A DNA stretch of 64,000 nucleotides from an uncultured Planctomycetia bacterium. GTDB taxonomy: Bacteria > Omnitrophota > Gorgyraeia > Gorgyraeales > Gorgyraeaceae. The stretch is from positions 30,923-94,922 of the forward strand of contig CAZMID010000002.1 of assembly GCA_964566255.1 (NCBI GenBank), read 5' to 3'. Position numbers and translations under genes: made by a program. Below the pieces are notes generated by a model. It searched no databases. It was not told where the DNA came from and worked only from the letters and a program-made list of their open reading frames with translations. Shown piece by piece: positions 12,849 through 39,542 of this stretch. Positions within the stretch are counted from its first letter, which is position 1, and the number at the start of each line of letters is the position of its first letter.

Positions 12849-12852
12849 GAAT

Positions 12853-18390: not shown

Positions 18391-18441
18391 CTGCTATATT
18401 CCTTCCTAGGTATTAATTTAATACTAGCATATAAAATTATA

Positions 18442-18470: not shown

Positions 18471-18516
18471 TATAGAACGTCCCTACCTAATATATTGTAT
18501 ATAATATGGAGGATAT

Positions 18517-21003: not shown

Positions 21004-23904
21004 ATGTTAAAGAAAAACTTTAATATTCATTTGTTTTTATCAATTGTATTTCTGTTGACCACAGTTTTTCCACCATCTTTATTTTCTTACCAAGAAAGTC
21101 CTTATGGTACTGGTTATAGTTCAGATAGTGGCTGGGTAGATGAATCACTTGATTACAGGCCAGTGACTTACAAAAAGGTACGTTGTTCACGCTGCGGCAT
21201 GGAATTTTATTATGTTCCAGGGAAGGAATGTCCTCATTCTCATTGGATACATTATGAGATTCCCAGAGAGGATTTATCAGAAGATTCTACTTCGGATTTT
21301 GAGAAAGAGACCCAATATAACACGGAATTAGACAAAGATAAAAAGAAGGGGGCGTTGTCTAATTTACTCAGACAGAAAAAAGAGGGCGATGATAAAATCA
21401 CCAGAAAGATTAAGAGGCGTTTGCACAAGAGAGAAGGTGAAAACAGAGATTTTTCCATTTTTGAATCAGAGGACTCTAAGTCTAAGCAGGAGCGTCGTTA
21501 TGAACTTCGCCAGAAACTGACCTGTCCATACGATGGGCATGAGTTTTTTCCTGAAGGTGACTTAGTAGAAGATGTAAAATTGCTACAAAAGGATCCTCCT
21601 ATTGAACAACCATCTGCTATAGAATCAAGTTTTACAAGGTCTATTCCTTTTGGAGTTTCAAAAGAATTAAAACAGTTTGGATATGATTTATTTAAAATCT
21701 TTGGAGACAGCTCTAGGAAAGAGAAAGAGCAATCTATAGCTACAGGAGAAGCCGGGGGTGCCTTAACTACATTAGGTATATTAAAAGATGCACTTTCCCC
21801 TGGTAGAGGTTCTGAAGGTGTTAAAATTGGTTCTAATATAGCAGTTGTGGCTGTTGAACCTGATTATATTATTGGTCCAGGAGATACAATGGTTGTTAAT
21901 ATATGGGGGAGTGTTCAGCAGAATTTTCCTATAGAGGTTGATGGGGAAGGTAAGATTATGCTTCCAAAAGCAGGACCCCTTTATGTCTGGGGTTTAAGAT
22001 TCAAAGATGCCGAAACTAAAATTAGAGAACAACTTGATAAATATTTCGCAAATTTAGAAATAGGTGTTTCAATGGGTAAGTTGCGCAACGTCAAGGTTTA
22101 TATATTAGGAGAGGTTAAAAAACCAGGTTTCTATAGTATGAAGTCGCGCTCAACCATTTTTCAAGCCTTATATGCAGCAGGTGGACCTACCAAGATGGGT
22201 TCTTTAAGAAAGATTAAGCTTATACAGGCAGACGGGAGAGAACAAACAATAGATGCATATTCTTTTCTTTTGGGGGGGAGTAGGAAGGAGTATTTTCAAA
22301 TTCAGTCAGGCGATACCATATTTGTCCCTCCAGTAGGTGATGTGGTCGCTATTGCTGGAAATGTAAAACGACCTGCGATATATGAAACAAAGAGCAAAAT
22401 ACCTTTGAGTGACTTATTGAGTTTTGCAGGAGGTATGATGCCTACAGCAGATTTTCAACATATTCAGATAGAACGCGTTAGAAATAATGAAAGACGAGTA
22501 ATGCTAGATATAGAATTAGAGCCTTCAGAACTAGGAGGGTTTTCATTAGATGGTATCGATTTGCAGAATGGTGACATGGTGATTGTTTCACCTATAGTAA
22601 GGTTGAAACATGATTTTGTATCTATACTTGGGAATGTTGAACGGCCAGGTGATTATGCTTTAACAAAAGATATGAAAGTAGATGATCTTATAAAGATGGC
22701 AAAGGGATTTTTGCCTGGAACCTATTTATCTAGGGCAGAGATAAGTAGAGTTACCAAGGATAGGACACGCCAAACTATCCCGGTAAATTTAGATAAGCTG
22801 AGAACTGGAGTAAAAGAAGAAAATATACTCTTGAATGAATGGGATATTTTGTTTATATATTCTCATGCAGAAGTTAATCCACCTTCATTTGTGGAGATAG
22901 ATGGGGCAGTTAACAAACCAGGTAAATATGAACTTACGCCTGCCATGAAAGTTTCAGATCTTATTTTCAAAGCAGGAGGCGTTAGGCCAGGAGATGTTAT
23001 AGAAGAGGCAGAGTTGTTTCATATTATGCCAGGAGAATCACCCGTTATTAGAAAGATTGCAGTAAAGAGACTGTTCGATGCTAAGGTTTCTGTTGATAAA
23101 GATATCATACTTCGTGCAGGAGATACACTCTTTGTAAAATCAGAACCAAAGCTTACTGAGAGAAGGACAGTTGTTATTGAAGGTGAAGTAAAATATCCAG
23201 GAAAGTATTCTATTAAAGAAGGAGAAACAATCAGTTCTCTTATTGAGCGTGCTGGAGGATTTACAGAAGAAGCATTTTTAGAAGGATCTGTATTCACCCG
23301 AGAATCCATAAAGAAAGCTCAGGAAAAGATGAGACAGCGTTTTATTGTAAGGGAAACTAGGGCCCTTCTTGAAGAGCAGCAGTCGGTTTTACTGAGGAGA
23401 GGATCTGATGTAGATATAGCCCAGGTAGCTGAATCTGTAAAGATGAGAAGCGAGATGTTAGATTTTATCAGATCAGCTGAAATAGAGGGTCGTATGGTAA
23501 TACGACTTACAGATATCGCAGAATTAAGAGGATCTAACTGTGACATTTTGCTAGAAGATAAGGATGCTATTATTGTACCGCAAATACCCTCATCTGTTGC
23601 AGTAATAGGAAGTGTAAATAATCCAACATCTGTTCCCTTTGAAAAGAATAAGAGTATTGAATATTATATTCATAAGACAGGTGGCCTGACAAAGCATGCA
23701 GACAAAAGCGGCATATATGTTATGCGGGCCAATGGTGAGGCAGTTAGCAAGTTTATGATGTCTAAAAAAGTTGAACGAGGCGATACAGTAATTATTCCGC
23801 AGGAATTTAGATATTGGACACCACCAGGACAGCTTTTGCGTGATACTGTAGAAATTCTATCTCGCATTATCGTTGGTATTGGTATAATTGCTGCTTTAGA
23901 CTAG
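21004..23904 (+). CDS. Polysaccharide export protein, Wza/KpsD family, with multiple SLBB repeats and a long N-terminal extension
   Basis: Signal peptide. Poly_export-like core (GPGDTMVVNIWGSVQQNFPIEVDGEGKIMLPKAGPLYVWGL…). Several downstream soluble-ligand-binding β-grasp repeats (…GDTIFVP…, …GDMVIVSP…, …GDTLFVKS…, …GDTVIIPQ…). It is 966 aa. Confidence 0.7.
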   Translation: MLKKNFNIHLFLSIVFLLTTVFPPSLFSYQESPYGTGYSSDSGWVDESLDYRPVTYKKVRCSRCGMEFYYVPGKECPHSHWIHYEIPREDLSEDSTSDFEKETQYNTELDKDKKKGALSNLLRQKKEGDDKITRKIKRRLHKREGENRDFSIFESEDSKSKQERRYELRQKLTCPYDGHEFFPEGDLVEDVKLLQKDPPIEQPSAIESSFTRSIPFGVSKELKQFGYDLFKIFGDSSRKEKEQSIATGEAGGALTTLGILKDALSPGRGSEGVKIGSNIAVVAVEPDYIIGPGDTMVVNIWGSVQQNFPIEVDGEGKIMLPKAGPLYVWGLRFKDAETKIREQLDKYFANLEIGVSMGKLRNVKVYILGEVKKPGFYSMKSRSTIFQALYAAGGPTKMGSLRKIKLIQADGREQTIDAYSFLLGGSRKEYFQIQSGDTIFVPPVGDVVAIAGNVKRPAIYETKSKIPLSDLLSFAGGMMPTADFQHIQIERVRNNERRVMLDIELEPSELGGFSLDGIDLQNGDMVIVSPIVRLKHDFVSILGNVERPGDYALTKDMKVDDLIKMAKGFLPGTYLSRAEISRVTKDRTRQTIPVNLDKLRTGVKEENILLNEWDILFIYSHAEVNPPSFVEIDGAVNKPGKYELTPAMKVSDLIFKAGGVRPGDVIEEAELFHIMPGESPVIRKIAVKRLFDAKVSVDKDIILRAGDTLFVKSEPKLTERRTVVIEGEVKYPGKYSIKEGETISSLIERAGGFTEEAFLEGSVFTRESIKKAQEKMRQRFIVRETRALLEEQQSVLLRRGSDVDIAQVAESVKMRSEMLDFIRSAEIEGRMVIRLTDIAELRGSNCDILLEDKDAIIVPQIPSSVAVIGSVNNPTSVPFEKNKSIEYYIHKTGGLTKHADKSGIYVMRANGEAVSKFMMSKKVERGDTVIIPQEFRYWTPPGQLLRDTVEILSRIIVGIGIIAALD

Positions 23905-24532: not shown

Positions 24533-25261
24533 ATGAAGGTAACCTTACTTGTACCAACTTTAAACGAGATAGAAGGCATGAAGAAGATAATGCCTAGAAT
24601 AAAGAATGACTGGGTCGATCAGATTATTATTGTTGATGGAAATTCTACTGATGGTACATTTGAATATGCCAAGGGAAATGGATATTTTGTTTTTAGGCAA
24701 AAGGAAAAGGGAATACGACATGCGTATATTGAAGCCTTGAAATATATAGAAGGAGATGTAGTAATTACCTTTAGCCCAGATGGAAACTCGATCCCTGAAC
24801 TTATCCTGCCGCTGGTGGAAAAGATGAAAGAGGGCTATGATATGGTGATAGCTTCTCGCTATGCCAAAGGCGCAAAGAGTTATGATGATGACAGGGTTAC
24901 TGCTTTTGGAAATTTCATGTTTACTTCACTTATAAATCTCTTTTACAGGGCAAACTATACAGATGCAATGGTAATGTTTCGTGCATGGAAAAAAGATATT
25001 TTTTATGCACTAGATTTAGATAAGGAACGTAGTTACTCTTTAGAAGAAAAAATTTTTCGTACTAAAATAGGTATTGAGCCACTGCTGTCTATCAGGGCTG
25101 CCAAAAGAGGATTAAAATGCGCAGACATCCCAGGGGATGAACCATCTCGAATAGGCGGAGAGAGAAAATTACAGGTTTTTAAATGGGGTAGTGCCTATCT
25201 TTTTGAAGTTTTTAGGGAGTTATTTTTTGGTCTTAAAAGAAACAAAGGAGTCAAGCGATGA
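24533..25261 (+). CDS. GT2 glycosyltransferase, Dpm1/ArnC-like polyprenyl-phosphate sugar synthase (paralog 1 of 3)
   Basis: TLNEIEGM…IIIVDGNSTDGT…SPDGNS…ASRY is a GT-A fold with a DxD-like DGN. It is about 55% identical by eye to the ORFs at 37899 and 58396. Confidence 0.75.
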   Translation: MKVTLLVPTLNEIEGMKKIMPRIKNDWVDQIIIVDGNSTDGTFEYAKGNGYFVFRQKEKGIRHAYIEALKYIEGDVVITFSPDGNSIPELILPLVEKMKEGYDMVIASRYAKGAKSYDDDRVTAFGNFMFTSLINLFYRANYTDAMVMFRAWKKDIFYALDLDKERSYSLEEKIFRTKIGIEPLLSIRAAKRGLKCADIPGDEPSRIGGERKLQVFKWGSAYLFEVFRELFFGLKRNKGVKR

Positions 25262-26190
25262 AAATATTAGTTACAGGGGCAGCGGGTTATATAGGATCAG
25301 TTTTAACACCAAAACTATTGCAAAAAGGTCATAAGGTTATTGCTGTAGATAATTTTATGTATGGCCAAACCTCTTTATTAGATTCTTGTCATTATGATAA
25401 TCTGACTATTGTCCGCGGAGATGCTCGCGATAAAAAGTTAGTCACGAAACATCTCAGAGAGGTCGATGCTATCTTTCCTTTAGCTTGCCTTACAGGTGCA
25501 CCACTTTGTTCTAAGGATCCCTTTAATGCTAAGGCTGTCAATTTTGATGCGGTTAAGATGATTTTAGATTTACGCAGCAGAGGTCAAATAATAATCTTCC
25601 CTACTACAAACAGTGGTTATGGTATCGGGCAGAAGGGAGTCCATTGTACAGAGAGAACACCCTTAAATCCCGTTTCTTTTTATGGAAAACTAAAGGTAGA
25701 CCTAGAAAAAATGATTCTGGATTCCAAGAGTTGCATCACCTTAAGACTTGCTACTGCTTTTGGCATTAGCCCACGCATGAGGCTTGATCTCCTTGTCAAT
25801 GATTTTATTTATCGAGCTGTTATGGACCGGTATCTCGTTCTTTTTCAGGCACATTTTAAGAGGAATTACATACATGTGCAGGATGTTGCAAGGGCGTTTA
25901 TACATTCTTTAGAAAATTTTGATAGTATGAAAAACGAACCATACAATGTAGGTTTGAGTGATGCCAATTTAAGTAAATGGGAGCTATGTGAAGAGATAAA
26001 AAAACACCTTCCAGAATTTTATTTCACTGAATCTCAAATAGGAGAAGATCCTGATAAAAGGGATTATGTCGTAAGCAATGAGAAGATTGAAAAGACACGC
26101 TTTAAACCTGATGTGTCTCTTCAAATAGGTATTAGAGAGTTAATAAAGGGATATCAAATTATAAGAAGGAATCAGTTTTCCAATATTTAG
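25258..26190 (+). CDS. NAD-dependent epimerase/dehydratase family protein
   Basis: N-terminal ILVTGAAGYIGSVL Rossmann motif and an extended SDR fold. Confidence 0.7.
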   Translation: MKILVTGAAGYIGSVLTPKLLQKGHKVIAVDNFMYGQTSLLDSCHYDNLTIVRGDARDKKLVTKHLREVDAIFPLACLTGAPLCSKDPFNAKAVNFDAVKMILDLRSRGQIIIFPTTNSGYGIGQKGVHCTERTPLNPVSFYGKLKVDLEKMILDSKSCITLRLATAFGISPRMRLDLLVNDFIYRAVMDRYLVLFQAHFKRNYIHVQDVARAFIHSLENFDSMKNEPYNVGLSDANLSKWELCEEIKKHLPEFYFTESQIGEDPDKRDYVVSNEKIEKTRFKPDVSLQIGIRELIKGYQIIRRNQFSNI

Positions 26191-26195
26191 GTTTT

Positions 26196-27953
26196 ATGGC
26201 AGGAGTAAAAGAATTTTATAAAAGGGATAAAAGCCTCTTAATCATTTTTATGATTATGGTAGCTTATTATATACAGCATCTAGTAAGCTTTCGCTTAGGT
26301 ATAAATTTTGAAGAGTGCCGTGATCCAAATGCCTACCTTTTGGCTATGGAAGGCCATTTACCGTATCGAGATTTCGCCTGGTTTTATGGACCTTTTTCTT
26401 TCTTTGTCTATCCATTTATTATGAAGATCTTTGGTGTAAATTTGCTTGTTTTGAGACTTAGCTATATAATACTCGCTTCTTTTACTATACCCCTTGCTTA
26501 TTTTTTGGCTAGAAGGATACTACCTTATTTTTGGGCAGGAGTGGCTAGTTTTTTATCGATCGTCTTTTTTGATACACCTTATTATGCATTTAATCATATT
26601 TTCACTGTACTAGGAGGATTGGCGTGTTTGTTGATGGTTTGTAGATTTATAGAAAGAAATGAACAGATTTCCAATCTTTTTTGGGCAGGCATTTTTGCTG
26701 GTGTAGTAGTATTGACAAAACCTTTATTGTCAGGGCTTGTCTTATTTATAGCTGTTTCTTTATATCTATTGCTTTTCAGAGAATTAGGAGAATTAAAGAA
26801 GAGATTTAAGAATTATATGATCTTTGCTATAAGCATGTTCTTTTTGATTTTGCTGTATCTTTTGTACCTCTATTTCCAGACTACGCTTAAAGGTTTAACC
26901 ATAGCTTATCCATTTTTAGGTAGGGATTCACTGGTAGCTATTGAGAATATGCATGGGAATACAAAATTTTGGCCTTTGTTTTTGATGTTGGTCGAAAGGC
27001 TCAAAGGCATAATTCCAATAGCCGAGATTGTGAGCATATCCTCATTTAACGAGCTCAAAGGGCTTATGGTTGATTTTTTTGATGACTTTATTTTTCTCTT
27101 GCCTTTTATGGCATCTGGCCTAATCTTTTTAGTTTACATTGTTTCTAAATCCAACAAGATTACCCCATGGCTTAAGGAGAAAGTTCTTCTGGATAAAAAG
27201 TTCTTATTAATGTTTATCATTTTCTCTATTTTTATTTCTCTGGAAGGTATAAAGGTAGGCCACAGGTATAACAGGGCATATACCATGCAGGTTCCTTTCA
27301 TTCTCACCGTCTACATACTCTATTTTATAAAAAGCATTTGTTCTCGCAGGCGTATACTTACGGCAATTTTCGTAACATTATTTTTGTTTTATCTTAGTTT
27401 TTTGCATTTTTTTCGTTATCCGTACTCAATGATTAGAAAATACACTGAGCCTTTGAATCTTGATCGCGCTAGAATATTTCTTACGCTTCCAGAGAAGGAA
27501 TTATATCAATCCCTGGTGAGTCATCTTTCGGCTAATTTCAAAAAAGAAGACAGGATGGCTGTTATAGGTTATTCAGGCTGTTATTCTCAATTTAGTTTCT
27601 TAACTAAACAAAGAAATGTTTTTGAAGATCATGAATTTATATTTGCAAAGCTTAAATCTTTACTAAATACTTCATATAAAAGAGAGGAAGTAAAACCACA
27701 ATTGGCTTCTTTCGAAGATAGGATAATATCTAGAATGGAGAGAGAAAAACCCAAGATCATTTTGATTATAGTCAAAGATTCCTTACAGGATCAAAGGTTG
27801 AAAGATTACAAATTTTTATCCTCAAGGATAAAATCTTATATAAAAAGGAACTATTTATTTGATAAGGTATTTGGGCCGGCAGATATTCATGGACTTGGAG
27901 GCAGGATAGGCTGGATTAACCTATACAAATTAAAAGGAGCGTCACGATCATGA
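26196..27953 (+). CDS. Polytopic membrane protein, GT-C-like (ArnT/PMT-type glycosyltransferase or polymerase candidate)
   Basis: At least 11 predicted hydrophobic helices. An acidic first loop (…EECRDPNAYLLAMEG…) resembles the GT-C DE loop. There is a C-terminal soluble region. Confidence 0.35.
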   Translation: MAGVKEFYKRDKSLLIIFMIMVAYYIQHLVSFRLGINFEECRDPNAYLLAMEGHLPYRDFAWFYGPFSFFVYPFIMKIFGVNLLVLRLSYIILASFTIPLAYFLARRILPYFWAGVASFLSIVFFDTPYYAFNHIFTVLGGLACLLMVCRFIERNEQISNLFWAGIFAGVVVLTKPLLSGLVLFIAVSLYLLLFRELGELKKRFKNYMIFAISMFFLILLYLLYLYFQTTLKGLTIAYPFLGRDSLVAIENMHGNTKFWPLFLMLVERLKGIIPIAEIVSISSFNELKGLMVDFFDDFIFLLPFMASGLIFLVYIVSKSNKITPWLKEKVLLDKKFLLMFIIFSIFISLEGIKVGHRYNRAYTMQVPFILTVYILYFIKSICSRRRILTAIFVTLFLFYLSFLHFFRYPYSMIRKYTEPLNLDRARIFLTLPEKELYQSLVSHLSANFKKEDRMAVIGYSGCYSQFSFLTKQRNVFEDHEFIFAKLKSLLNTSYKREEVKPQLASFEDRIISRMEREKPKIILIIVKDSLQDQRLKDYKFLSSRIKSYIKRNYLFDKVFGPADIHGLGGRIGWINLYKLKGASRS

Positions 27954-28954
27954 TTATAAACAGAACCCCATTTCGTATTTCTTTTTTTGGTGGAGGAACA
28001 GATTATCCGGTCTGGTATAGAGAAAATGGCGGGGCAGTATTGGCTACAACGATAAACAAATATTGTTACCTGAATTGTCGATATTTACCGCCTTTTTTTG
28101 AACATAGATCCCGGGTTACCTATTCCAAAATAGAACTTATTAAGGATAAAGATGAAATTGTACATCCTTCTGTCAGAGAGTGTCTGCGATTTATGGAGAT
28201 AGACAGAGGCATAGAGATTCATCACGATGGAGATCTTCCTGCAAGGACAGGTGTGGGTTCAAGTTCTGCTTTTACTGTTGGATTGCTCCATTCACTTTAT
28301 GCATTAAAGGGAAGCATGCCTACTAAAAGGCAGTTGGCACTTGACGCCATCCATATCGAGCAACAAAGAATAGAGGAAAATGTTGGATCTCAGGATCAGG
28401 TACAGGTTGCCTTCGGCGGTTTTAATTTGATAAAATTTGGAGGAAAAGATCATATTAACGTTATGCCAATGACAATAAGTCATCAGAGATTGGAGCTTTT
28501 TCAAGATCACCTGATGCTTTTCTTTACAGGATTTTCTCGGACAGCTTCAGAGATTGCTGCAGAACAGATCAAGGTAACGCCCTATAAGAAAAAAGAATTA
28601 GGTCAGATGCATGAGATGGTAGGTGTTGCCTTGGAGATTCTTAACAGTAATGCTGATTTATTGGATTTTGGGAAGCTTATGCATGAAAATTGGCAGATTA
28701 AACGTAGTCTTTCCAATAAGATATCTACTTCTATAATTGACGAGATGTATTCTGCTGCTATTGAGGCTGGTGCTTTAGGTGGAAAGTTATTAGGCGCTGG
28801 CGGTGGTGGTTTTATGCTGATTTTTGCTAAGCCAGAGATCCAACCAAAAATAAAGGAAAAATTGAAAAAACTTTTATATGTACCTTTTAGATTTGAAGAT
28901 TCAGGAAGTCAGATTATATTTTATAGCCCGGATAATTCTTTTATAAGGGTATGA
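27950..28954 (+). CDS. GHMP-family sugar kinase, HddA-like (D-glycero-D-manno-heptose 7-phosphate kinase)
   Basis: MIINRTPFRISFFGGGTDYPVWYRENGGAVLATTINKY matches the HddA N-terminus. The GHMP motif PARTGVGSSSAF and C-terminal GAGGGGF are present. Confidence 0.68.
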   Translation: MIINRTPFRISFFGGGTDYPVWYRENGGAVLATTINKYCYLNCRYLPPFFEHRSRVTYSKIELIKDKDEIVHPSVRECLRFMEIDRGIEIHHDGDLPARTGVGSSSAFTVGLLHSLYALKGSMPTKRQLALDAIHIEQQRIEENVGSQDQVQVAFGGFNLIKFGGKDHINVMPMTISHQRLELFQDHLMLFFTGFSRTASEIAAEQIKVTPYKKKELGQMHEMVGVALEILNSNADLLDFGKLMHENWQIKRSLSNKISTSIIDEMYSAAIEAGALGGKLLGAGGGGFMLIFAKPEIQPKIKEKLKKLLYVPFRFEDSGSQIIFYSPDNSFIRV

Positions 28955-29679
28955 AGAGTAACATTGAGGTAAAAGATGTGGATGTAGTTATACTTTGCGG
29001 AGGTAAAGGAGAACGCTTAAAGTCTGTTATTAATGATTGCCCAAAGCCTATGGCTGATATTAATGGCAGTCCTTTTTTGGATATTCTTATTGATTATGTG
29101 GCAAGTTTTGGATTTAGACGTTTTATATTATGTACAGGTTTTATGGGCGGGACGATCAAACGATATTATCAAAAGAGAAAGGATCCTTTAGAGGTATTGT
29201 TTTCAGAAGAGAAAGAGGCTTTAGGTACGGCTGGAGCAATAAAAAATGCAGAAACCATTATAAGAAGCAATCCTTTCCTGGTGCTTAACGGTGATTCATT
29301 TTGTCGGATTGATTTAAAGGAATTTATTGATTTTTATTTTGCTAAAAAAGCAATGTTTTCTGTAGTTCTGGTTAAAGGTGCAAAAGGATCTCGTAAACAG
29401 TGTGGTGTAGTTAAGATAGGAGCATTGCAGCAGGTTATTAGATTTGACGAGAAGGTGGAGATAGTTGGTAGTAGTTTTTTTAATGCCGGAATTTATCTTT
29501 TTGAAAGAAGTATTTTTTCCATGATCCCAAGCAATAAAAATTTCTCTTTTGAATATGATTTGTTTCCTAAAATTATTGATAGACCTTTTTATGGATTCGT
29601 CAGTGAAGAAGAGATGGTAGACATTGGGACTCCTCAAAGATATATGAAAGCAAAGAAATATTTTGAAGGAATAAGATGA
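28951..29679 (+). CDS. Sugar-phosphate nucleotidyltransferase, HddC-like (heptose 1-phosphate guanylyltransferase candidate)
   Basis: VVILCGGKGERLKSV…PKPMADINGSPFL is an NTP-transferase motif. It is translationally coupled to the HddA-like kinase. Confidence 0.62.
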   Translation: MKSNIEVKDVDVVILCGGKGERLKSVINDCPKPMADINGSPFLDILIDYVASFGFRRFILCTGFMGGTIKRYYQKRKDPLEVLFSEEKEALGTAGAIKNAETIIRSNPFLVLNGDSFCRIDLKEFIDFYFAKKAMFSVVLVKGAKGSRKQCGVVKIGALQQVIRFDEKVEIVGSSFFNAGIYLFERSIFSMIPSNKNFSFEYDLFPKIIDRPFYGFVSEEEMVDIGTPQRYMKAKKYFEGIR

Positions 29680-30803
29680 AGACATCAAATAAACTTTTAA
29701 GGTGGGTTAGGACTATTAACTATCCGTCTTATGTAATATTTTTTGTAACAGCGAAATGTAATGCTAACTGCAAGATGTGTTTCTATAAAGACAACATGGC
29801 CAAAGCTTATCAAAAAGAGGAGGAACTGTCTGTAGAAGAATATGAAAAGATTAGTAAACGCATAAAACTAATAAATATATTAGGTATTTCTGGCGGTGAA
29901 CCATTTTTGAGAAAAGATCTGGCTGATATTGTGAAAGTTATTTATAAAAATTGCTCTCCTTTAGTGGTGGATCTTCCTACAAACGGATATTACGTGAAAG
30001 ATATTTTAAGGCAATCTGAGGAAATAGCCAAGTATTGTAAGGATATGGTTGTAGATGTGCAGCTTTCTATGGATGGGCCAGAAGAAATACACAATGAAAT
30101 ACGAGGCCTTAAGGATGGATTCAGCAGAGTAAGAGAGACTTATAAGGGTTTGATTGCATTGAGAAAAAAATATAACAATTTAAAAGTGAAGGCCTGTGTC
30201 GTATATTCTCATTACAATCAGGACTCTATTGAAGAGTTATTTGATATCCTCGGTAGGGATTTTAAGGATTTGGATAGAGTTGTATTTTCTGTAGTACATG
30301 GAAGCGTGAGTAATACTGAGGCATTTTCTTTTGATTGGAATAGATATTTTAAGATTTGCGATAGAATCCGGCATGGTTCAACTGTTAAAAGTATTGGAGA
30401 TTTTCATTCTATTTTTACCATTGCTTTAAGAATGGTTAAAAATGATTTCTTGAAAGAAGTATTAAGGACGAAGGACATGTATAGAAAGTGTGGCACAGGA
30501 AAAAGGGTGATTGTCGTTAATGAAACAGGAGCGGTTTTTCCTTGTGAGCCGCTTTGGCATTCGATAGGAGAATTAAGAAATAATAATTATGATATGGGGC
30601 AGATTTTGAATTCAAAGGAGATAAAGAATTTTTATAGAAAGATTGTTAAAGAAAAATGTAACTGTCATTGGGGACTGCCGTTATCAAACACACTGATTTA
30701 TAAACCAAGATATTATCCAAAGATATTGTTTGAGATGTTTAGGGTTATCAAAAGAAGCTTTGCGAAAGAGACAATACCTTATCAGAGTAAATTATGTCAA
30801 TAA
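29676..30803 (+). CDS. Radical SAM enzyme with C-terminal Cys-rich (SPASM/twitch-like) extension
   Basis: Has the CNANCKMC (Cx3Cx2C) cluster motif and the GGEPFLRKD SAM-binding motif. The C-terminus carries extra cysteines (…CGTGKRVIVVNETGAVFPCEPL…CNCHWG). Confidence 0.72.
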   Translation: MKTSNKLLRWVRTINYPSYVIFFVTAKCNANCKMCFYKDNMAKAYQKEEELSVEEYEKISKRIKLINILGISGGEPFLRKDLADIVKVIYKNCSPLVVDLPTNGYYVKDILRQSEEIAKYCKDMVVDVQLSMDGPEEIHNEIRGLKDGFSRVRETYKGLIALRKKYNNLKVKACVVYSHYNQDSIEELFDILGRDFKDLDRVVFSVVHGSVSNTEAFSFDWNRYFKICDRIRHGSTVKSIGDFHSIFTIALRMVKNDFLKEVLRTKDMYRKCGTGKRVIVVNETGAVFPCEPLWHSIGELRNNNYDMGQILNSKEIKNFYRKIVKEKCNCHWGLPLSNTLIYKPRYYPKILFEMFRVIKRSFAKETIPYQSKLCQ

Positions 30804-31651
30804 AATTAGATTTACATATTCATTCTAAATCGCGGGGAAGAGTTTTTATAAATGCTGAGCAATTGAGAGGGTCTTTGAAACGGAATAAACTGGACGGCGT
30901 AGCAATAACTAATTTTTTTGATATTTCCCATGCACTCTGGCTCAAAGAAAAGGTTAAAGAATATATTATTATAGTCGGCCAGGAGATATGGACAAAGGAT
31001 GGCCATATAGTGGCATTGGGCATCAAGAAGAGGATTGCTGATTTTCAAACTATCCAGGAAACCACCAACTGTATACATGAACAGGGTGGGATCGCTGTAG
31101 CTGTTCACCCCTTTTTATCTTTGGGAATAGGTAAGAAGGCAATGTTATTTCCTTCCATTGATGCAGTGGAGGTCTATAACGGGGTTATGGGAAATTTTGT
31201 TATTCCTAATTATTTAGCAGAAAGAATGGCTAAAAAAATGGGAATATCACAACTTGCTTCTACAGATACGACTGATCCAAAATTGATTGGCCGCAGTTAT
31301 ACTGAAATTATGACCAAAGATCCCAAATTGATACTGAAGAGTATTTGTTCAGGGGATGTTAGATTGTTTAAAAGGGCATTGCCATTTCCATTTATATTTG
31401 TTTTTAAGGGTATTTTTAAGTTCCAAGATGTAGAACCGTGTTCAACTCATGGTGTCCCTTGTTTTGTATGTGCAAAATCAATGACTGTAAGGTTGTTTAA
31501 AGAGAAATTCAAATGTTTCGATTGCGGCAAAATAGTATTTTCGCATATAGCCTGTTCTAACGGCCATTATATTTGTGTTCCGTGTATGATAAAAAGAGGC
31601 ACTGACATAAAAGACACTTATAGTATTGAGGAAAATATCCATGCGGCATAA
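30794..31651 (+). CDS. PHP-domain metal-dependent phosphoesterase with Cys-rich C-terminal tail
   Basis: N-terminal LDLHIHSKSRG is the PHP HxH motif. Later conserved His and Asp residues are present. The last roughly 70 aa have seven Cys (CSTHGVPCFVCAKS…CFDCGK…CSNGHYICVPC), suggesting a zinc ribbon. Confidence 0.6.
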   Translation: MSIKLDLHIHSKSRGRVFINAEQLRGSLKRNKLDGVAITNFFDISHALWLKEKVKEYIIIVGQEIWTKDGHIVALGIKKRIADFQTIQETTNCIHEQGGIAVAVHPFLSLGIGKKAMLFPSIDAVEVYNGVMGNFVIPNYLAERMAKKMGISQLASTDTTDPKLIGRSYTEIMTKDPKLILKSICSGDVRLFKRALPFPFIFVFKGIFKFQDVEPCSTHGVPCFVCAKSMTVRLFKEKFKCFDCGKIVFSHIACSNGHYICVPCMIKRGTDIKDTYSIEENIHAA

Positions 31652-32747
31652 AGTTAGTATAGGTAGATATCAGGATTTTGAGAAGATTTTGACTGATATC
31701 GGAGGAATAGAGAGGTTTGTAAAAAAGGGCGATAGGGTTTTTATAAAACCTAATATCTGTGTTCCCAAATCTTATGAGACCGGGACTACAACGAATCCAT
31801 ATTTGATTGAAAGATTAATAAGGTTGCTTAAAGATATAACTGGAAATATCCAGATAGGGGATGGTCCTATCCCTGCGTTCGGAAGATTATTTTCTGTGAA
31901 CCACCCTTTGATTTATGATATTGCAAAAAAATATGATATTGATGTAATCGATCTTAATTATGCAGATAAAAAAATAGTAGGATCTTTTGCTATCTCAGCA
32001 CCGCTTTTAGAGGCAGATGTTATAATAAATATGCCTGTCTTGAAGACACATGTGAGGGCAGGGATTTCGTGTTCTCTTAAAAATATGATGGGTGCTGTAC
32101 CTCTTCGCTTGAAACACGAGATGCATAAACATGGCCTTGATAATAGAATAGTCGAGCTTGCTAAGACCATAAGGCCACATCTAAATATCGTTGATGCTGT
32201 TATATGCCAAGAAGGGGATGGTCCTACTAATGGAACACCAAAGAAATTGGGTTTGGTTATTGCAGGTGATAATCAGGTTGCAGTGGATGGTTTGTGTTGT
32301 AAAATTATGGGAATAAATCCCCAAGGCATTCTACATCTCAAATGGGCAGAGAAGGAAAAGATAGGCCTTATTCGTAATTCAGAATATATTGGGTTTAAGT
32401 CTGAATTTATCTCCAAGTTTAAAATGCCCTCTATGTACAGGAATAGACTTATGCGACTTGCTATGCAAATAGCAGAAGGACCTATTATAAAATTATTTGA
32501 AAAAAATAATGGAATTTTGATAAATAAAGAAAAATGCATTAAATGCGGATTATGCGTAAAGGCCTGTCCTGTTAGTGCCATTAGCATGAACGCAGGAGAT
32601 TATCCTATTATAGATGATAAAAAGTGTATTTTATGTCTATGTTGCCATGAGGCGTGTTTAAATAATGCTATAGCGATTAAGAAAAAAGGAATTTCAGGAT
32701 CTGGGATAATAAAAGAAACACATAAAAAGGAGAAGGTTTATGCTTAA
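31641..32747 (+). CDS. DUF362 domain protein with C-terminal 2x[4Fe-4S] ferredoxin domain
   Basis: The DUF362-type N-terminus (…KGDRVFIKPNI…) is followed by CIKCGLCVKACP and CILCLCCHEACLNNA ferredoxin motifs. The start is placed at the Met preceded by GAGGAAAAT. The ORF track offers an upstream Met at 31626. Confidence 0.62.
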   Translation: MRHKVSIGRYQDFEKILTDIGGIERFVKKGDRVFIKPNICVPKSYETGTTTNPYLIERLIRLLKDITGNIQIGDGPIPAFGRLFSVNHPLIYDIAKKYDIDVIDLNYADKKIVGSFAISAPLLEADVIINMPVLKTHVRAGISCSLKNMMGAVPLRLKHEMHKHGLDNRIVELAKTIRPHLNIVDAVICQEGDGPTNGTPKKLGLVIAGDNQVAVDGLCCKIMGINPQGILHLKWAEKEKIGLIRNSEYIGFKSEFISKFKMPSMYRNRLMRLAMQIAEGPIIKLFEKNNGILINKEKCIKCGLCVKACPVSAISMNAGDYPIIDDKKCILCLCCHEACLNNAIAIKKKGISGSGIIKETHKKEKVYA

Positions 32748-33786
32748 AAAGTTTTTAAATAATATTTTAGAATCAATTAGAAAGATGCGATTATATGCTC
32801 GAGTCGGGCTTACGAGCATGACTCCTTTAAAGGCATACGTGATGTTGCGTTATTGGATCTTAACCAACATTTTTAAAAAGGAGATTCCCTGGGTTATAGA
32901 GCTTTCAGTTACTTATAGGTGTCAGTGTAGGTGCGAACACTGTTCAGTATCAAATTATATTTCTGAAGCCGGTGAAAAAAAAGAGCTGACGAAAGATCAA
33001 ATAGAAGATGTTTTACAGCAGGCTGTTAAGATGGGAATACCCAAGGTAGATTATTTTGGAGGCGAGCCTTTATTACGAAAGGATATTGTTGATTTAGTTA
33101 AAATTGGCGCTAGGAAAGGTCTGTATATGTCAATAACTACCAATGGTTGGCTTTTAACACAAGACATGGCAAAAAAATTAAAGAAGGCAGGGATAAGCTG
33201 TATGAATATCAGCATAGATTCTACGTCTAAAGAAGAACATGACAGGCTTAGGGTGTTACCCGGACTTTATAAAAGGGCAGTGGATGCCATTAGATATTGC
33301 CATAAAGAGCGGATTTCTTGTGTTGTTTCTACATATGTAACTCGTGATAGGATAGTAAATTTTGGTGTAGGTGAATTAGATAATAGTGATTTGACTAAAA
33401 TTCTTTCCTTGTCAAGGGAGCTCAAGGCTTCTGGAGTAAGGGTATTATTTCCTATAATTTCAGGTGAATGGGTAAGTGAAGACAAAAAGGAATTTACTCA
33501 GGAAGAAGTAAGGCGTGTTATTGATGGTATTGACAGTTCTTTTGCTTTTATTGAAGGGGCATATTCAGTAAAGAATGGAAGGAAGATTTGTCAATCTTTA
33601 CAGGGAAAGATGTTTAATATCTCACCTTATGGTGAAGTACAACTTTGCATTGCCTTTACTGATGTTTTTGGGAATGTTAAGGATGCCTCTCTGAAGGATT
33701 TATTAAAGGGGATGTATACTCACCCCACATATATTAGAAACAAAGATTCATATTGTTGTAGTACTACTGGTTTAAAGAGATGTTAA
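32740..33786 (+). CDS. Radical SAM enzyme (twitch/SPASM-like C-terminus)
   Basis: Has the CQCRCEHC cluster motif (Cx3Cx2C counted from the first Cys) and DYFGGEPLLRKD. The C-terminus carries Cys (…CQSLQGKMFNISPYGEVQLCIAF…CCS). Confidence 0.72.
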   Translation: MLKKFLNNILESIRKMRLYARVGLTSMTPLKAYVMLRYWILTNIFKKEIPWVIELSVTYRCQCRCEHCSVSNYISEAGEKKELTKDQIEDVLQQAVKMGIPKVDYFGGEPLLRKDIVDLVKIGARKGLYMSITTNGWLLTQDMAKKLKKAGISCMNISIDSTSKEEHDRLRVLPGLYKRAVDAIRYCHKERISCVVSTYVTRDRIVNFGVGELDNSDLTKILSLSRELKASGVRVLFPIISGEWVSEDKKEFTQEEVRRVIDGIDSSFAFIEGAYSVKNGRKICQSLQGKMFNISPYGEVQLCIAFTDVFGNVKDASLKDLLKGMYTHPTYIRNKDSYCCSTTGLKRC

Positions 33787-33804
33787 AAGGTATAGGATAA
33801 AGTA

Positions 33805-35328
33805 ATGAACATTACGTTGATTCGTCCTCCAGCATATAGTACAGGATTGATGGGCGCTCAATTGGTGCCTTTTCTTGGAATTGCCTATATTGGTGCTGTT
33901 GCAAAAAAAGCAGGGCATAATGTTGATATTATAGATATGTGTGGAGAGGATATTGCTCGCACAGAGATTATACAGGATAGATATGTAGCTTATGGCATGT
34001 CTTTTGCTTCACTTGATAAACGGCTTAAGACTTCAGAGGTAATCGGTTTTACCTGTATGTTTTCCCAGGACTGGGTATTTCATAAGGCATTGATTGAATA
34101 TGTGCATAGGCTTTCTCCTGATAGTGTCTTCATTGCAGGAGGAGAACATATATCAGCTTTACCAGAGTATTGTTTAGACGATTGTCCCGAGTTAGATATC
34201 TGTGTAGTCGGTGAAGGAGAGGATGTATTTACACATCTTATCAGTACGCTTGAAGAAAAAGGTAGACTTTCTAATGTCCCAAGTCTTGTTTATCGTGACT
34301 GCAAAAATGGTGTTTATCACAGTACAAAAAGGTCTAATCGGATTAAAGATATAGATAGGATTCCTTTACCCATATGGGATCTTACCCCGATGGAAAATTA
34401 TCTCTCAAGGGAGTTAAATTATCATATACAGCGCGGTCGCACTATCCCAATGGTTGCAACTAGAGGATGCCCTTATAACTGTACTTTTTGTTCCAGTTTT
34501 AATATGTGGGGCAGACTTTGGATTCCGCGTAATCCTCGACTGGTCGTAGATGAAATGGAGTATTATATTGATAAGTATAAGGCAGACAATTTTGTTTTTT
34601 CAGAACTCACTACTATAGTAAGGAGAAAAGAGATTGTAGATTTGTGTAATGAAATTATAAATCGTAGAATTAATGTTACATGGCAACTTCCAACCTTGAG
34701 GACAGAGGATGTAGATTACGATATATTGAAACTTATGTATCAGGCAGGTTGTAGAGATTTAGATTTTGCTATAGAGTCAGGATCAAGGAAAGTGTTACTT
34801 AGTGTAAATAAGAGTAATAATCCGAATAAGATATTTTCTTTAGCTGGAGATGCAGTAGACCTGGGAATGAATCTGAGCACTAATATAGTTGTGGGCTTGC
34901 CACAAGAAAGATTTAGAGATTTTTTTAAAACTTATTGGCTGGTTGTAAAACTGGCAATTAGGGGCTCACAGGAATTAAACGTGTTTCCGTTTGTCCCTTA
35001 TCCAGGCTCAGAATTGTTTAAAGATTTTCTTAGAGATAAAAGGATTTCATTAAATGATGATTATTTTTTGAATCTCTTTGGTTATGGAAATTTGAGCAAG
35101 GCAATATCGTGGTCAGAACATTTTGGGCCAAGGACATTAAACTTCATGAGGCTTTTTTTATTGGTTAATTTTTATGGATTGATGTTGATTGCGCATCCGC
35201 GGCGCATTCTACAACTCATTAGTAATACTGTACGTGGCAGAGCCACTACAAAATTAGAAAATGTACTAAAGAAGGTATTTAAAAATGTCAATGTCTATGT
35301 TTCCAGTAGAGCAGGAAATACAGAATAA
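33805..35328 (+). CDS. B12-binding-domain radical SAM enzyme
   Basis: N-terminal Rossmann-like cobalamin-binding-domain pattern, then TRGCPYNCTFCSS (Cx3Cx2C). Confidence 0.75.
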   Translation: MNITLIRPPAYSTGLMGAQLVPFLGIAYIGAVAKKAGHNVDIIDMCGEDIARTEIIQDRYVAYGMSFASLDKRLKTSEVIGFTCMFSQDWVFHKALIEYVHRLSPDSVFIAGGEHISALPEYCLDDCPELDICVVGEGEDVFTHLISTLEEKGRLSNVPSLVYRDCKNGVYHSTKRSNRIKDIDRIPLPIWDLTPMENYLSRELNYHIQRGRTIPMVATRGCPYNCTFCSSFNMWGRLWIPRNPRLVVDEMEYYIDKYKADNFVFSELTTIVRRKEIVDLCNEIINRRINVTWQLPTLRTEDVDYDILKLMYQAGCRDLDFAIESGSRKVLLSVNKSNNPNKIFSLAGDAVDLGMNLSTNIVVGLPQERFRDFFKTYWLVVKLAIRGSQELNVFPFVPYPGSELFKDFLRDKRISLNDDYFLNLFGYGNLSKAISWSEHFGPRTLNFMRLFLLVNFYGLMLIAHPRRILQLISNTVRGRATTKLENVLKKVFKNVNVYVSSRAGNTE

Positions 35329-36145
35329 AATATTTAAATTAAGGAAAAAGGCGAATTGGATTAGAAGCCAAGTTTTAGAGATGATTGCCTTAGCCGGTAA
35401 AGGACATATTGGGGGAGCCTTTTCTTGTGCAGACATTCTGACCACTCTTTATTATGGCGGAGTGCTTCGTTTTGACATTTCTGATAAGGCCTGTGATAAA
35501 AGGGATAGATTTATTTTAAGCAAAGGACATTCAGGTACAACTTTATATGCAATACTGGCAGATCTTGGTTATTTCCCTCTTTCTGAATTACGTAATTATC
35601 AGAAGGAAGGGAGTATGCTGGGAGGGCATCCTGATAGGAAGATACCAGGCATAGAGGCTGATACAGGTTCTCTTGGACATGGCCTTGGTATTGGCGCAGG
35701 ATTAGCTTTAAGTGCGAAGATGAACAAAAAAGATTTCAAGACAGTTGTTTTGCTTGGTGATGGTGAGTGTTGCGAAGGTTCAGTCTGGGAAGCAGCTATG
35801 TTTTCAAGTCACCATAAGCTAAATAATCTTATTGGAATCGTGGACAAGAATGGGCTTTGTGTTACGGATTTTATTAAGGACTGCGTTGATATGGATCCAT
35901 TAAGCGAAAAATGGAAGGCCTTTGGTTGGGATGTAGCTATTATTAATGGTCATTCTTTTGAAGAGCTTCTATCAGTTTTTAAGGATTTGCATTCCCGTAA
36001 ATCAGATAGACCACTAATGATAATAGCAGAGACTGTGAAAGGTAAAGGTGTTTCTTTCATGGAGGGGAAGTGTAAGTGGCACCACAGTGTGCCAAAGGGC
36101 GAAGAACTTGAAACTGCAAGAAGAGAACTTAACGTGAATCTATAA
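35285..36145 (+). CDS. Transketolase, N-terminal (thiamine-diphosphate-binding) subunit
   Basis: GHIGGAFSCADILTTLYYG, the GDG…EG TPP motif (LGDGECCEGSVWEA), and the 286-aa length of split-transketolase A subunits. Confidence 0.85.
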   Translation: MSMSMFPVEQEIQNKIFKLRKKANWIRSQVLEMIALAGKGHIGGAFSCADILTTLYYGGVLRFDISDKACDKRDRFILSKGHSGTTLYAILADLGYFPLSELRNYQKEGSMLGGHPDRKIPGIEADTGSLGHGLGIGAGLALSAKMNKKDFKTVVLLGDGECCEGSVWEAAMFSSHHKLNNLIGIVDKNGLCVTDFIKDCVDMDPLSEKWKAFGWDVAIINGHSFEELLSVFKDLHSRKSDRPLMIIAETVKGKGVSFMEGKCKWHHSVPKGEELETARRELNVNL

Positions 36146-36156
36146 GGGGATTTGAA

Positions 36157-37098
36157 TTGAAGATTTCAACCGTTGATATGAGAGATGCTTTTTTTGATGA
36201 ATTGTATAAGATTGCCAAGGATGATCCACAAGTCGTTTTTCTTACTGCTGATATGGGAGCCCATAGCCTAGTCAGATTCAAAAAGGATCTTAAAAATCAA
36301 TATATTAATGTTGGGGTGGCTGAGCAAAATATGGTCAGCATATCTGCGGGTTTATCTTTGGGAGGTAAGAAAGTTTTTATATATACTATTATTCCATTTG
36401 CAACTTTGCGTTGTTATGAGCAGATCAAGATTGACCTCTGTTGCATGAATTTGCCAGTAACTATTATAGGGGCTGGTCCAGGATTTTGTTATGGAAGCGA
36501 TGGTCCTACTCATCATGCTACGCAGGATATTGCTGTTATGAGGACATTACCTGAGATGAGTATATTAAATCCGTCGGATTCCCTGATGTCTCAAGCGAGT
36601 GCAAGGATTGCATATACAAATTCATCCCCGACTTATGTGAGGATTGACAAAGGGATGCTTCCCTTGATTTATGATGAGATAAAAACTGATTTTTCAGAAG
36701 GCATTACTGAAGTCAGGCGTGGCAACGATCTAGCTATCATTTCTACTGGAATCATGGTGTGTAAGGCCTTGGAGGTAGCTGAGAGTTTACTTACTCATTC
36801 TATATCAGCCAGTGTAATTGATATATATAAAATTAAACCTTTGAATAAGAAGTTACTTTTAGAGTTTATTGATAAATCAAATCGCATTGTGACTCTGGAA
36901 GAAAATATTATTACAGGTGGAATAGGCAGCGCGGTAGGTGAAGTCTTAAATGATAATAGTAAAAAGATTCCTTTGAAACGTATAGCAATCTCTGATGAGC
37001 ACTGTTTTAAATCTGGCAGCAGGGAAGATTTGCAGGCATTTTATAATTTGGATAGAGATGGTATTACGGACACTATTTTAGAGTGGATAAGGAGGTAA
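36157..37098 (+). CDS. Transketolase, C-terminal (pyrimidine-binding and C-terminal domain) subunit
   Basis: VGVAEQNMVSISAGLSLGGK… is typical of split-transketolase B subunits. It is adjacent to the A subunit. Confidence 0.85.
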   Translation: MKISTVDMRDAFFDELYKIAKDDPQVVFLTADMGAHSLVRFKKDLKNQYINVGVAEQNMVSISAGLSLGGKKVFIYTIIPFATLRCYEQIKIDLCCMNLPVTIIGAGPGFCYGSDGPTHHATQDIAVMRTLPEMSILNPSDSLMSQASARIAYTNSSPTYVRIDKGMLPLIYDEIKTDFSEGITEVRRGNDLAIISTGIMVCKALEVAESLLTHSISASVIDIYKIKPLNKKLLLEFIDKSNRIVTLEENIITGGIGSAVGEVLNDNSKKIPLKRIAISDEHCFKSGSREDLQAFYNLDRDGITDTILEWIRR

Positions 37099-37099
37099 C

Positions 37100-37885: not shown

Positions 37886-37898
37886 AAGGTAGATTCTA

Positions 37899-39541: not shown

Positions 39542-39542
39542 A

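Follow-up and report, generated by a model that had tools for sequence, protein, structure and literature searches.

A PHP-family protein beside an HddA/HddC-type gene pair in an Omnitrophota surface-glycan locus probably belongs to a conserved radical SAM cassette

The window analysed here is a stretch of 64,000 nucleotides from an uncultured bacterium of the phylum Omnitrophota (contig CAZMID010000002.1 of GenBank assembly GCA_964566255.1, positions 30,923 to 94,922). It includes an adjacent pair of genes for an HddA-like kinase and an HddC-type nucleotidyltransferase, which indicate a GDP-heptose branch, and it lacks gmhA and gmhB. This raises the question of how the GmhA and GmhB steps are supplied. 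The original prediction, made from the sequence alone, proposed that a nearby member of the PHP (polymerase and histidinol phosphatase) family with a Cys-rich tail may replace GmhB or act on a polyprenyl-diphosphate intermediate. The comparison of gene contexts described below makes it probable, if only by a modest measure, that the locus contains two separable modules and that the PHP gene is part of the second module and does not encode a GmhB substitute.

The PHP-family protein, designated PHP-Zn ribbon protein (285 aa, starting with MSIKLDLHIHS; coordinates 30794 to 31651), follows a gene for a radical S-adenosylmethionine (SAM) enzyme, rSAM-A (375 aa; coordinates 29676 to 30803). The latter lies between the transferase and PHP genes; it was passed over in the original prediction and is the constant partner of the PHP gene. 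Both genes, like all annotated genes of at least 150 aa in the window (G+C content ~35%), are on the plus strand. Gene order was compared in 15 loci with full-length PHP orthologues from at least five phyla, the sources being Omnitrophota, Elusimicrobia, Firestonebacteria, Planctomycetales, Brocadiaceae and a Vicingus metagenome-assembled genome (MAG). The 5' part has the same order in all 15, namely a short-chain dehydrogenase/reductase (SDR) or epimerase gene, rSAM-A, the PHP gene, an optional gene for a B12-binding radical SAM enzyme, another radical SAM enzyme or a DUF362 protein, and a second radical SAM gene, rSAM-B. In the 3' part, rSAM-B is followed by genes for a B12-binding radical SAM enzyme, the N- and C-terminal subunits of a split transketolase (TK-N and TK-C), a FabG-like SDR, a family 2 glycosyltransferase (GT2b), an Fcl-like SDR, and one or more further B12-binding radical SAM enzymes. 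Orthologues of rSAM-A (55–73% identity) are immediately upstream of the PHP gene in 14 of the 15 loci, where the PHP gene starts -16 to +21 nt from the rSAM-A stop codon, and in the fifteenth locus a DUF362 gene lies between them. The PHP gene is predicted to be translationally coupled to rSAM-A. Given the fixed order in 15 loci, the PHP gene is a component of a strongly conserved radical SAM cassette of ~11 genes and ~13 kb, which occupies coordinates 29676 to 42566 of the window and happens to abut the heptose module there.

The association of the cassette with heptose genes is sparse. The hddA and/or hddC genes were found within 10 kb in two of the 15 loci, both from Elusimicrobia and both at the far 3' end, and gmhA or gmhB in none. 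Conversely, no PHP or rSAM-A gene was found in any of seven kinase loci for which ~10 kb was available on each side. The kinase has conserved partners of its own. Module 1 consists of five genes (coordinates 24533 to 29679) encoding a small soluble glycosyltransferase (GT2a), an extended SDR (Epi310), a membrane glycosyltransferase of the GT-C type, HddA and HddC. In the complete Omnitrophota genome CP070837 (locus L085), the GT2, SDR, PMT_2-type GT-C, kinase and transferase genes are in the same order as in the window, at 48–79% identity. Locus L086 has the order Epi310, two GT-C genes, HddA and HddC, and locus L087 has GT2a-Epi310-HddA-HddC. The kinases of these three loci are 72–78% identical to that of the window, and neither gmhA, gmhB, the PHP gene nor rSAM-A was found within 10 kb of them. 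Hence, missing gmhA and gmhB genes in the locus are a property of this kinase clade that is independent of the PHP gene. The proposal that the PHP protein replaces GmhB was therefore not sustained: the PHP gene tracks the rSAM-A cassette and not hddA or hddC, the closest hddA loci lack it, and three of its nine canonical metal ligands are lost (see below).

Each gene described in the original prediction was found where it had been placed, and its statement that the window has no GmhA or GmhB gene was borne out and could be extended to ~84 kb. A Pfam scan covered 49 of the 54 large open reading frames (ORFs), together with the truncated last ORF, and revealed no SIS or HAD domain in the 49 ORFs. 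For the other five, which are housekeeping ORFs (a DnaK fragment, DnaJ, an AccD-like protein, an ABC ATPase and LptD), the precomputed Pfam annotation of this contig likewise shows neither SIS nor HAD families. Searching the window by tblastn with approximate Escherichia coli GmhA and GmhB queries gave chance-level matches, the best of which (E = 0.007) falls in the ORF at 23921 that has no Pfam family. Neither gene was present in the 10 kb downstream (L106) or the 10 kb upstream (L107) of the window. Most simply, the GmhA and GmhB steps would be supplied by genes elsewhere in the genome. In Campylobacter jejuni, gmhB is located outside the capsule/heptose locus (PMC10680097). As the lack of local genes most likely means that they are encoded elsewhere, the puzzle as first posed largely dissolves.

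The kinase gene (coordinates 27950 to 28954; 334 aa; N-terminal sequence MIINRTPFRISFFGGGTDYP) encodes a protein with the Pfam domains GHMP_kinases_N and GHMP_kinases_C. The start codon of the following transferase gene (coordinates 28951 to 29679; 242 aa; NTP_transferase, 111 bits) overlaps the kinase stop codon in ATGA; hence translational coupling of the two genes, as originally proposed, is plausible. Among solved structures, the kinase is closest to a putative heptose kinase of Bacteroides thetaiotaomicron (PDB 3k85, 121 bits), WcbL of Burkholderia pseudomallei (115 bits), and HddA of C. jejuni (105 bits). HddA (NF049969) is also its best-scoring NCBIfam family, with 133.5 bits against a cut-off of 600, a value so high that it suggests a narrowly built model. 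The best PDB match of the transferase is HddC of Yersinia pseudotuberculosis (5xhw/6jq8, 123 bits), and on the NCBIfam HddC model it scores 137 bits against a cut-off of 300, in a tie with mycobacterial ManC. Since both equivalog cut-offs were missed, membership is left open by these scores taken by themselves.

The genomic context of the orthologues is more informative. The kinase belongs to a very large subfamily (over 120 clusters with at least 69% identity), and orthologues 56–64% identical to the window kinase are linked to gmhA and/or gmhB in six loci. The gmhA gene adjoins the kinase gene in L096, L101 and L104, both gmhA and gmhB accompany it in L097 and L105, and in L090 a gene for a GmhB-GmhA fusion lies between the transferase and kinase genes, all of these assignments being confirmed by NCBIfam. 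The fusion (coordinates 5217 to 6434 of L090) is a natural protein of 405 aa with GmhB at residues 5–178 and GmhA at residues 201–390. The kinases of the window clade, i.e. those of the window, L085, L086 and L087, share 54–65% identity with the gmhA-linked kinases, which are 50–62% identical among themselves. At each of the 101 positions that do not vary among the gmhA-linked kinases, the window kinase and its clade carry the same residue, and the clade shows only eight deviations, all of which are conservative hydrophobic swaps. The PFRISF and GSQDQ motifs align to those of PDB 3k85, and R9 and D149 are invariant. The catalytic residues of WcbL are R13 and D163 (PMC4691232), to which the Arg and Asp of these motifs would correspond. 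Because of the gmhA/gmhB linkage of orthologues, the equal identities and the 101 retained positions, the HddA/HddC assignment is accepted. By homology and by the context of the orthologues, the pair very probably represents a GDP-heptose branch, as originally recognised, with no sign of a switch in specificity.

The second element of the original prediction, the PHP protein, belongs to a family of ~90 homologue clusters that share 44–74% identity over the full length, tail included. It scores below the sequence cut-offs, with 16.7 bits on Pfam PHP_C and 47 bits against a cut-off of 80 on the NCBIfam CehA/McbA metallohydrolase model. An AlphaFold model built with 26 homologues (pLDDT 90.4, pTM 0.87) shows a variant PHP barrel at residues ~1–205 and a C-terminal Cys/His-rich domain at residues ~216–270. 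Foldseek matched the model with a probability of 1.00 to 2anu, 7ug9, 7rty and PHP domains of DNA polymerase III (Pol III). The tail has eight cysteines (residues 216–264), of which seven are invariant. The invariant residues in 26 homologues are C223, C226, C241, C244, C254, H258, C261 and C264, a pattern that fits a predicted double zinc-ribbon-like domain with one C4 site and one C3H site. The model of the tail shows beta-hairpins followed by a helix. Tails isolated from four family members matched no Pfam family and gave only sub-threshold zinc-ribbon/RING-like noise.

The top Foldseek matches were TM0559, PsfC and RNase AM, all at ~1e-9, followed by Endonuclease Q (EndoQ) and the PHP domains of Pol III at 2e-6 or worse, and histidinol phosphatase reached only 1.4e-2. 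A CpsB-type tyrosine phosphatase, which the original prediction had itself named as a competing identity, is not indicated. TM0559, PsfC and RNase AM are closer, no CpsB/YwqE chain is among the 50 listed PDB fold matches of the model, the Pfam scan of the window revealed no tyrosine kinase domain with which a CpsB/YwqE-type phosphatase would be paired, and the gene occupies its place in the radical SAM cassette in all 15 loci. A DNA-polymerase-associated PHP domain or EndoQ was considered and rejected, as the protein is a stand-alone one of 285 aa in a biosynthetic context and has the weaker fold matches to Pol III and EndoQ. Likewise, as a PHP barrel with no HAD match in Pfam or NCBIfam, it lacks the HAD fold with a DxDxT motif that characterises GmhB, to which it could at most be a functional analogue.

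Metal-binding PHP domains have nine ligands for three metals, with the consensus H, H, D/H, H, E, H, C/H, D/N, H (PMC3666897). The PHP-Zn ribbon protein retains six of these, H8, H10, E64, H71, H105 and D158, at positions 1, 2, 5, 6, 7 and 8. Positions 3, 4 and 9 are occupied by G15, F41 (in an invariant N40-F41 pair) and T160, whereas the nearest PHP-only relatives have SDG, TDH and SDxH at these positions. The distant family members P0242–P0248 also possess the tail and have lost the ligand at position 4. Positions 3, 4 and 9 presumably form the third-metal site, as in the YcdX structure; on that assumption, the family looks two-metal.

Taken together, these data favour two modules that meet in the window. 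In module 1, HddC would form GDP-heptose from heptose 1-phosphate, the Epi310 SDR would probably modify it, and the AglJ/Ppm1-like GT2a would probably load it onto polyprenyl phosphate for the GT-C with 11 transmembrane (TM) segments; the modification, loading and use by the GT-C are read from the conserved five-gene order alone. The cassette would serve the anaerobic tailoring of a GDP-linked or polyprenyl-phosphate-linked sugar, in which radical SAM enzymes may oxidise or deoxygenate the sugar, SDRs may reduce it, thiamine-dependent enzymes may add C2 units for extension or branching, and B12-binding radical SAM enzymes may C-methylate it. The PHP protein would be a hydrolase with a two-metal site, in all likelihood some kind of esterase such as a phosphoesterase, performing metal-dependent hydrolysis of the substrate or product of rSAM-A, to which the zinc domain may dock it. 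The assignment of the PHP protein as a hydrolase or phosphoesterase is itself tentative, and we would place it somewhat below an even chance.

Several points weigh against this interpretation. In the window, hddA, hddC, rSAM-A and the PHP gene belong to a single chain of overlapping genes, which begins with the GT-C gene (26196), ends with the DUF362 gene (31626) and has overlaps of 4–26 nt. With the window included, hddA is within 10 kb of the cassette in three of 16 loci, far above random placement. Any route beginning with sugar phosphates of the transketolase type logically calls for a phosphatase, and most PHP enzymes are phosphoesterases. As no nucleotidyltransferase is part of the cassette, it may depend on HddC-like enzymes. 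The location of gmhA and gmhB elsewhere in the genome is an assumption, and so is the binding of one third metal by the ligands at positions 3, 4 and 9. Finally, the polyprenyl-phosphate-heptose step and all chemical roles suggested for module 2 are drawn from family resemblance below curated cut-offs.

Among the alternatives, the one that survives best, at a low probability, is that the PHP-Zn ribbon protein is not a hydrolase at all. It could be a structural or redox accessory of rSAM-A with a rubredoxin-like tail, or could catalyse a two-metal isomerisation, decarboxylation or elimination in the manner of PsfC, the activity of which is non-hydrolytic. The similarity to PsfC, a joint top structural match (E = 1e-9, TM 0.55–0.63), and the loss of ligand positions 3, 4 and 9 make this plausible. 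It is further in line with the CxxC(G/A)K...CxDCGK knuckles, which resemble those of rubredoxin or zinc ribbons, with a weak match (27 bits) between the tail and MbdU, a metal-binding selenoprotein, and with the tight coupling to rSAM-A. However, the invariance of the six ligands and of many residues of the pocket in different phyla speaks for catalysis over scaffolding, and a dedicated DUF362-ferredoxin is already present in some loci. PsfC chemistry is oxygen-dependent, and this counts against a PsfC-like role in a radical SAM-rich, presumably anaerobic context.

A different explanation, which we consider unlikely, concerns the kinase. If the window-clade kinase were an anomeric kinase for a free sugar, as in salvage by fucokinase or galactokinase, GmhA and GmhB would not be needed. 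The four window-clade loci all lack a nearby gmhA or gmhB, the NCBIfam HddA cut-off was missed widely (133 versus 600), and the WcbL structures, which are AMP-PNP and mannose complexes only, have mannose in the sugar pocket (PMC4691232). On the other hand, all polar or charged residues invariant in the gmhA-linked orthologues are unchanged, the only differences being the eight conservative hydrophobic ones; the clade is as similar to the gmhA-linked kinases as these are to each other; and Epi310 and the transferase accompany the kinase in both groups.

The role originally proposed for the PHP-Zn ribbon protein, that of a non-orthologous GmhB replacement, appears still less probable. In that role, it would cleave off the 7-phosphate of heptose 1,7-bisphosphate or of a heptose 7-phosphate linked to GDP or to a lipid, and sedoheptulose 7-phosphate would come from the transketolase. 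Dephosphorylation at the lipid stage has a precedent in mycobacterial decaprenyl-phospho-ribose 5-phosphate. The PHP fold with a retained two-metal site would suit such a role, the PHP gene is in the overlapping hddA/hddC chain of the window and shares an operon with these genes in L002 and L010, and no gmhA or gmhB was found in ~84 kb. It is the operon contiguity in three loci, together with the limitation of the gmhA/gmhB search to ~84 kb, that keeps the proposal alive. Yet neither hddA nor hddC occurs within 10 kb in 12 of 14 distinct cassette loci, and the closest hddA loci (L085–L087) lack gmhA, gmhB and the PHP gene alike. The PHP gene is tied to rSAM-A, for which the GDP-heptose pathway has no role, and its product has lost three canonical metal ligands. 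A substitute for GmhA would still be missing, and genuine GmhB adjoins orthologous kinases elsewhere.

Lastly, a function in nucleic-acid processing, like that of RNase AM/TrpH or EndoQ, with the gene present in a glycan operon by chance, is highly improbable. It would fit the Foldseek matches to RNase AM (1.3e-9) and EndoQ (2.3e-6, 333 aligned columns), the latter being another combination of a PHP domain and a zinc finger. Against it stand the fixed position of the gene in the biosynthetic cassette in all 15 loci from different phyla, the loss of ligands that TrpH-like relatives keep, and a cassette devoid of other nucleic-acid genes.

The remaining genes of module 1 precede the kinase. GT2a (coordinates 24533 to 25261; Pfam Glycos_transf_2) is of the polyprenyl/dolichyl-phosphate glycosyl synthase type and has no TM segment. 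Its best NCBIfam matches, AglJ (97 bits) and Dol-P-hexose transferase, are both below cut-off, and its orthologues (72–76%) precede hddA in L085 and L087. Epi310 (coordinates 25258 to 26190; Pfam Epimerase) is an extended, GalE/4,6-dehydratase-like SDR that scores 97 bits on NCBIfam GalE, below cut-off. It is the most constant neighbour of the kinase, with orthologues (50–79%) in most kinase loci, including the gmhA-linked L090, L096, L101 and L105. The GT-C gene (coordinates 26196 to 27953; Pfam PMT_2, 31 bits; ~11 TM segments by a crude hydropathy count) has orthologues (47–60%) directly upstream of hddA in L085 and L086.

The window contains three small GT2 paralogues of the AglJ/Dol-P-hexose synthase type, in the regions 24533–27953, 37899–38570 and 58396–63008, with 47–61% mutual identity (GT2a is 53–61% identical to GT2b and GT2c). 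Two of the three adjoin polytopic membrane proteins, in one case the PMT_2 protein with 11 TM segments and in the other a pair with 10 TM (772 aa) and 8 TM (508 aa) segments, the members of which belong to no Pfam or NCBIfam family. This arrangement suggests that the locus may include three parallel lipid-carrier glycosylation modules.

Within the cassette, rSAM-A has the Pfam domains Radical_SAM (52 bits), Fer4_12 and SPASM, the last at 21.6 bits just at the cut-off. It has a short Cys-poor SPASM/twitch-like C-terminus. A C28-x3-C32-x2-C35 motif (CxxxCxxC) and C-terminal Cys residues are as in SPASM/twitch radical SAM enzymes, and its matches to named families (at most 64 bits) and solved structures are weak, with no equivalog reached. 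The gene after the PHP gene (coordinates 31626 to 32747) encodes a fusion of DUF362 (157 bits) with a 2x[4Fe-4S] ferredoxin (Pfam Fer4), which may serve as a dedicated reductant or electron donor for the radical SAM enzymes. It is an optional insert; a homologue with 67% identity follows the PHP gene in the Firestonebacteria locus L006 (coordinates 5506 to 6594), as in the window, one with 27% identity lies between rSAM-A and the PHP gene in the Brocadiaceae MAG locus L015 (coordinates 6690 to 7832), and none was found in the other cassette loci.

The radical SAM/SPASM enzyme rSAM-B (coordinates 32740 to 33786; Pfam) has orthologues (48–63%) in all 15 loci, and among solved structures it comes closest to BlsE, a cytosylglucuronate decarboxylase, and MoaA. 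It is followed by B12-1 (coordinates 33805 to 35328; Pfam B12-binding and Radical_SAM), for which AprD4 is the nearest solved structure and the cassette orthologues are 54–69% identical. The split transketolase noted in the original prediction was confirmed by Pfam and NCBIfam, with TK-N at 35285–36145 and TK-C, which has a TTG start, at 36157–37098. TK-C is closest to the split transketolase of Carboxydothermus hydrogenoformans (6yaj, 178 bits). The split transketolase is present in every cassette locus whose contig extends to its position and is a fixed member even in loci with no hddA within 10 kb. By comparison with 6yaj, of the residues that we presume to bind phosphate, an Arg is kept, a His apparently is replaced by Gly and a second Arg by Lys, an ambiguous pattern.

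SDR261, a FabG-like short-chain reductase (coordinates 37100 to 37885; Pfam adh_short_C2), has orthologues (59–78%) after the transketolase genes. GT2b, the second AglJ/Dol-P-hexose transferase-like GT2 (coordinates 37899 to 38570), scores 116 bits on AglJ, 48 on PpgS and 47 on ArnC, all below cut-off, and is the best-conserved cassette gene (66–74%). Epi323 (coordinates 38570 to 39541) is an SDR resembling GDP-L-fucose synthase (NCBIfam Fcl, 166 bits versus a cut-off of 500), with orthologues (59–66%) in most cassette loci. B12-2 and B12-3 (coordinates 39543 to 42566; Pfam), two B12-binding radical SAM enzymes, close the cassette, and their orthologues (62–72%) follow Epi323 in L007, L009, L012, L014 and L017–L019. 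Pairs of a radical SAM gene with an SDR gene and of a thiamine diphosphate (TPP) enzyme gene with an SDR gene recur in the cassette.

Two other assignments of the cassette were rejected. SPASM enzymes may act as peptide maturases, as in the synthesis of ribosomally made peptides with post-translational modifications (RiPPs), but the gaps in the cassette are at most 20 nt and leave no room for a precursor peptide, and the neighbours are all sugar enzymes. Phosphonate biosynthesis, suggested by a match to B12-dependent P-methyltransferases, the PsfC-like fold and an HMGL-like gene, was discounted as no phosphoenolpyruvate (PEP) mutase domain is present in the window.

Radical SAM genes are numerous beyond the cassette. 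Between 29676 and 58362 there are ten in ~29 kb, and at least four more in the 10 kb downstream of the window (L106). The ten comprise two of the SPASM type, one HemN-like gene (46825–48300) and seven with B12-binding domains, starting at 33805, 39543, 41115, 48304, 50117, 55563 and 56914. The window further includes three two-subunit TPP enzymes, the split transketolase (35285–37098) and two E1 alpha/beta-like pairs (43517–45605 and 53872–55553). Transketolase-like or E1-like TPP pairs also adjoin hddA orthologues in L085, L088–L090, L094, L104 and L105, which hints that C2 branching or extension of GDP-heptose derivatives may occur. Also within the glycan locus, at 51568–53887, a class I/II aminotransferase gene precedes one that is HMGL-like/homocitrate-synthase-like (272 bits).

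The surface-glycan locus as a whole exceeds 50 kb, has all genes on the plus strand and includes genes for Wza-like, Wzi and LptD proteins. The GC skew is above 0 in all 2-kb bins of the window (1–64000; cumulative +7.0), which together with the gene orientation is consistent with one long co-directional leading-strand block. Upstream of the export genes, a conventional nucleotide-sugar block (11559–19452) contains genes for two UDP-Glc/ManNAc dehydrogenase-like proteins, an RmlA-like transferase, a cupin epimerase, a 4,6-dehydratase, Gmd (397 bits) and a UXS-like SDR. Thus, the locus also makes precursors of the GDP-6-deoxyhexose and dTDP/UDP-sugar types. The Wza-like exporter (21004–23904) is unusually long (966 aa) with many SLBB repeats, and its N-terminal ~280 aa contain the Cys/His motifs CSRCGMEF...CPHSH and CPYDGHEF and have no Pfam match.

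What remains of interest is a conserved ~13-kb cassette, found in several poorly studied anaerobic phyla, that pairs a variant PHP metalloenzyme with a radical SAM enzyme, a split transketolase and multiple B12-binding radical SAM enzymes, beside glycosyl synthases of the polyprenyl-phosphate type and GT-C enzymes. No named NCBIfam or Pfam family matches the PHP-Zn ribbon family or the cassette, and no description of either was found in the literature. In its most specific form, which we regard as doubtful, the interpretation is that the PHP-Zn ribbon proteins are a new two-metal PHP subfamily with an obligate SPASM radical SAM partner. They would act in a widespread anaerobic route to branched or C-methylated higher sugars, delivered via polyprenyl phosphate to GT-C enzymes. 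Such a route would involve the split transketolase and several B12-binding radical SAM enzymes, would extend over Omnitrophota, Elusimicrobia, Firestonebacteria, Planctomycetota and others, and would start here from GDP-heptose. Characterisation of the cassette could reveal the way in which anaerobes produce branched or methylated higher sugars in the absence of oxygen, and might uncover a new function of the PHP fold, possibly with a lipid-linked heptose donor. It offers concrete gene sets for heterologous expression and merits experiments.

Comparison with known systems shows how far the resemblances reach. The PHP-Zn ribbon protein has the HxH, E, H, H and D ligands in common with TM0559 (2anu) and TrpH/RNase AM (7ug9, 9etk), but these keep all nine ligands, whereas it has G15, N40-F41 and D158-T-T and adds an 80-residue Cys/His tail. 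PsfC (7rty) from fosfomycin biosynthesis in Pseudomonas, the joint top fold match, is likewise a biosynthetic PHP enzyme that does not act on nucleic acids; however, the two proteins are 13% identical, and the window has neither PEP mutase nor another phosphonate gene. What links the PHP-Zn ribbon protein with GmhB is its origin from a mostly phosphoesterase family, and the HAD Rossmannoid fold of GmhB is unrelated to the PHP barrel. The similarities of cassette enzymes to BlsE, AprD4/AprD3, BtrN and thiamine-dependent branching enzymes are weak (35–55 bits) and reach no cut-off of a named family.

The kinase and transferase are from the same GHMP kinase and nucleotidyltransferase subfamilies as known HddA and HddC, with conserved WcbL-type Arg/Asp motifs, though they are only ~30% identical to the characterised enzymes. 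Their neighbours are a polyprenyl-phosphate-type GT2 and a GT-C in place of Leloir heptosyltransferases. The heptose pair are new members of a known pathway, and the genes themselves are ordinary. The three GT2 proteins of the window, each encoded near polytopic membrane proteins of 8–11 TM segments, best match AglJ, Dol-P-hexose transferase, ArnC and PpgS, recalling the pairs of a polyprenyl-phosphate sugar synthase with a GT-C, such as Ppm1/PMT and ArnC/ArnT, though all scores are below curated cut-offs. Compared with those pairs, the polyprenyl-phosphate cargo that may be used here, a heptose or other higher sugar, would be unusual.

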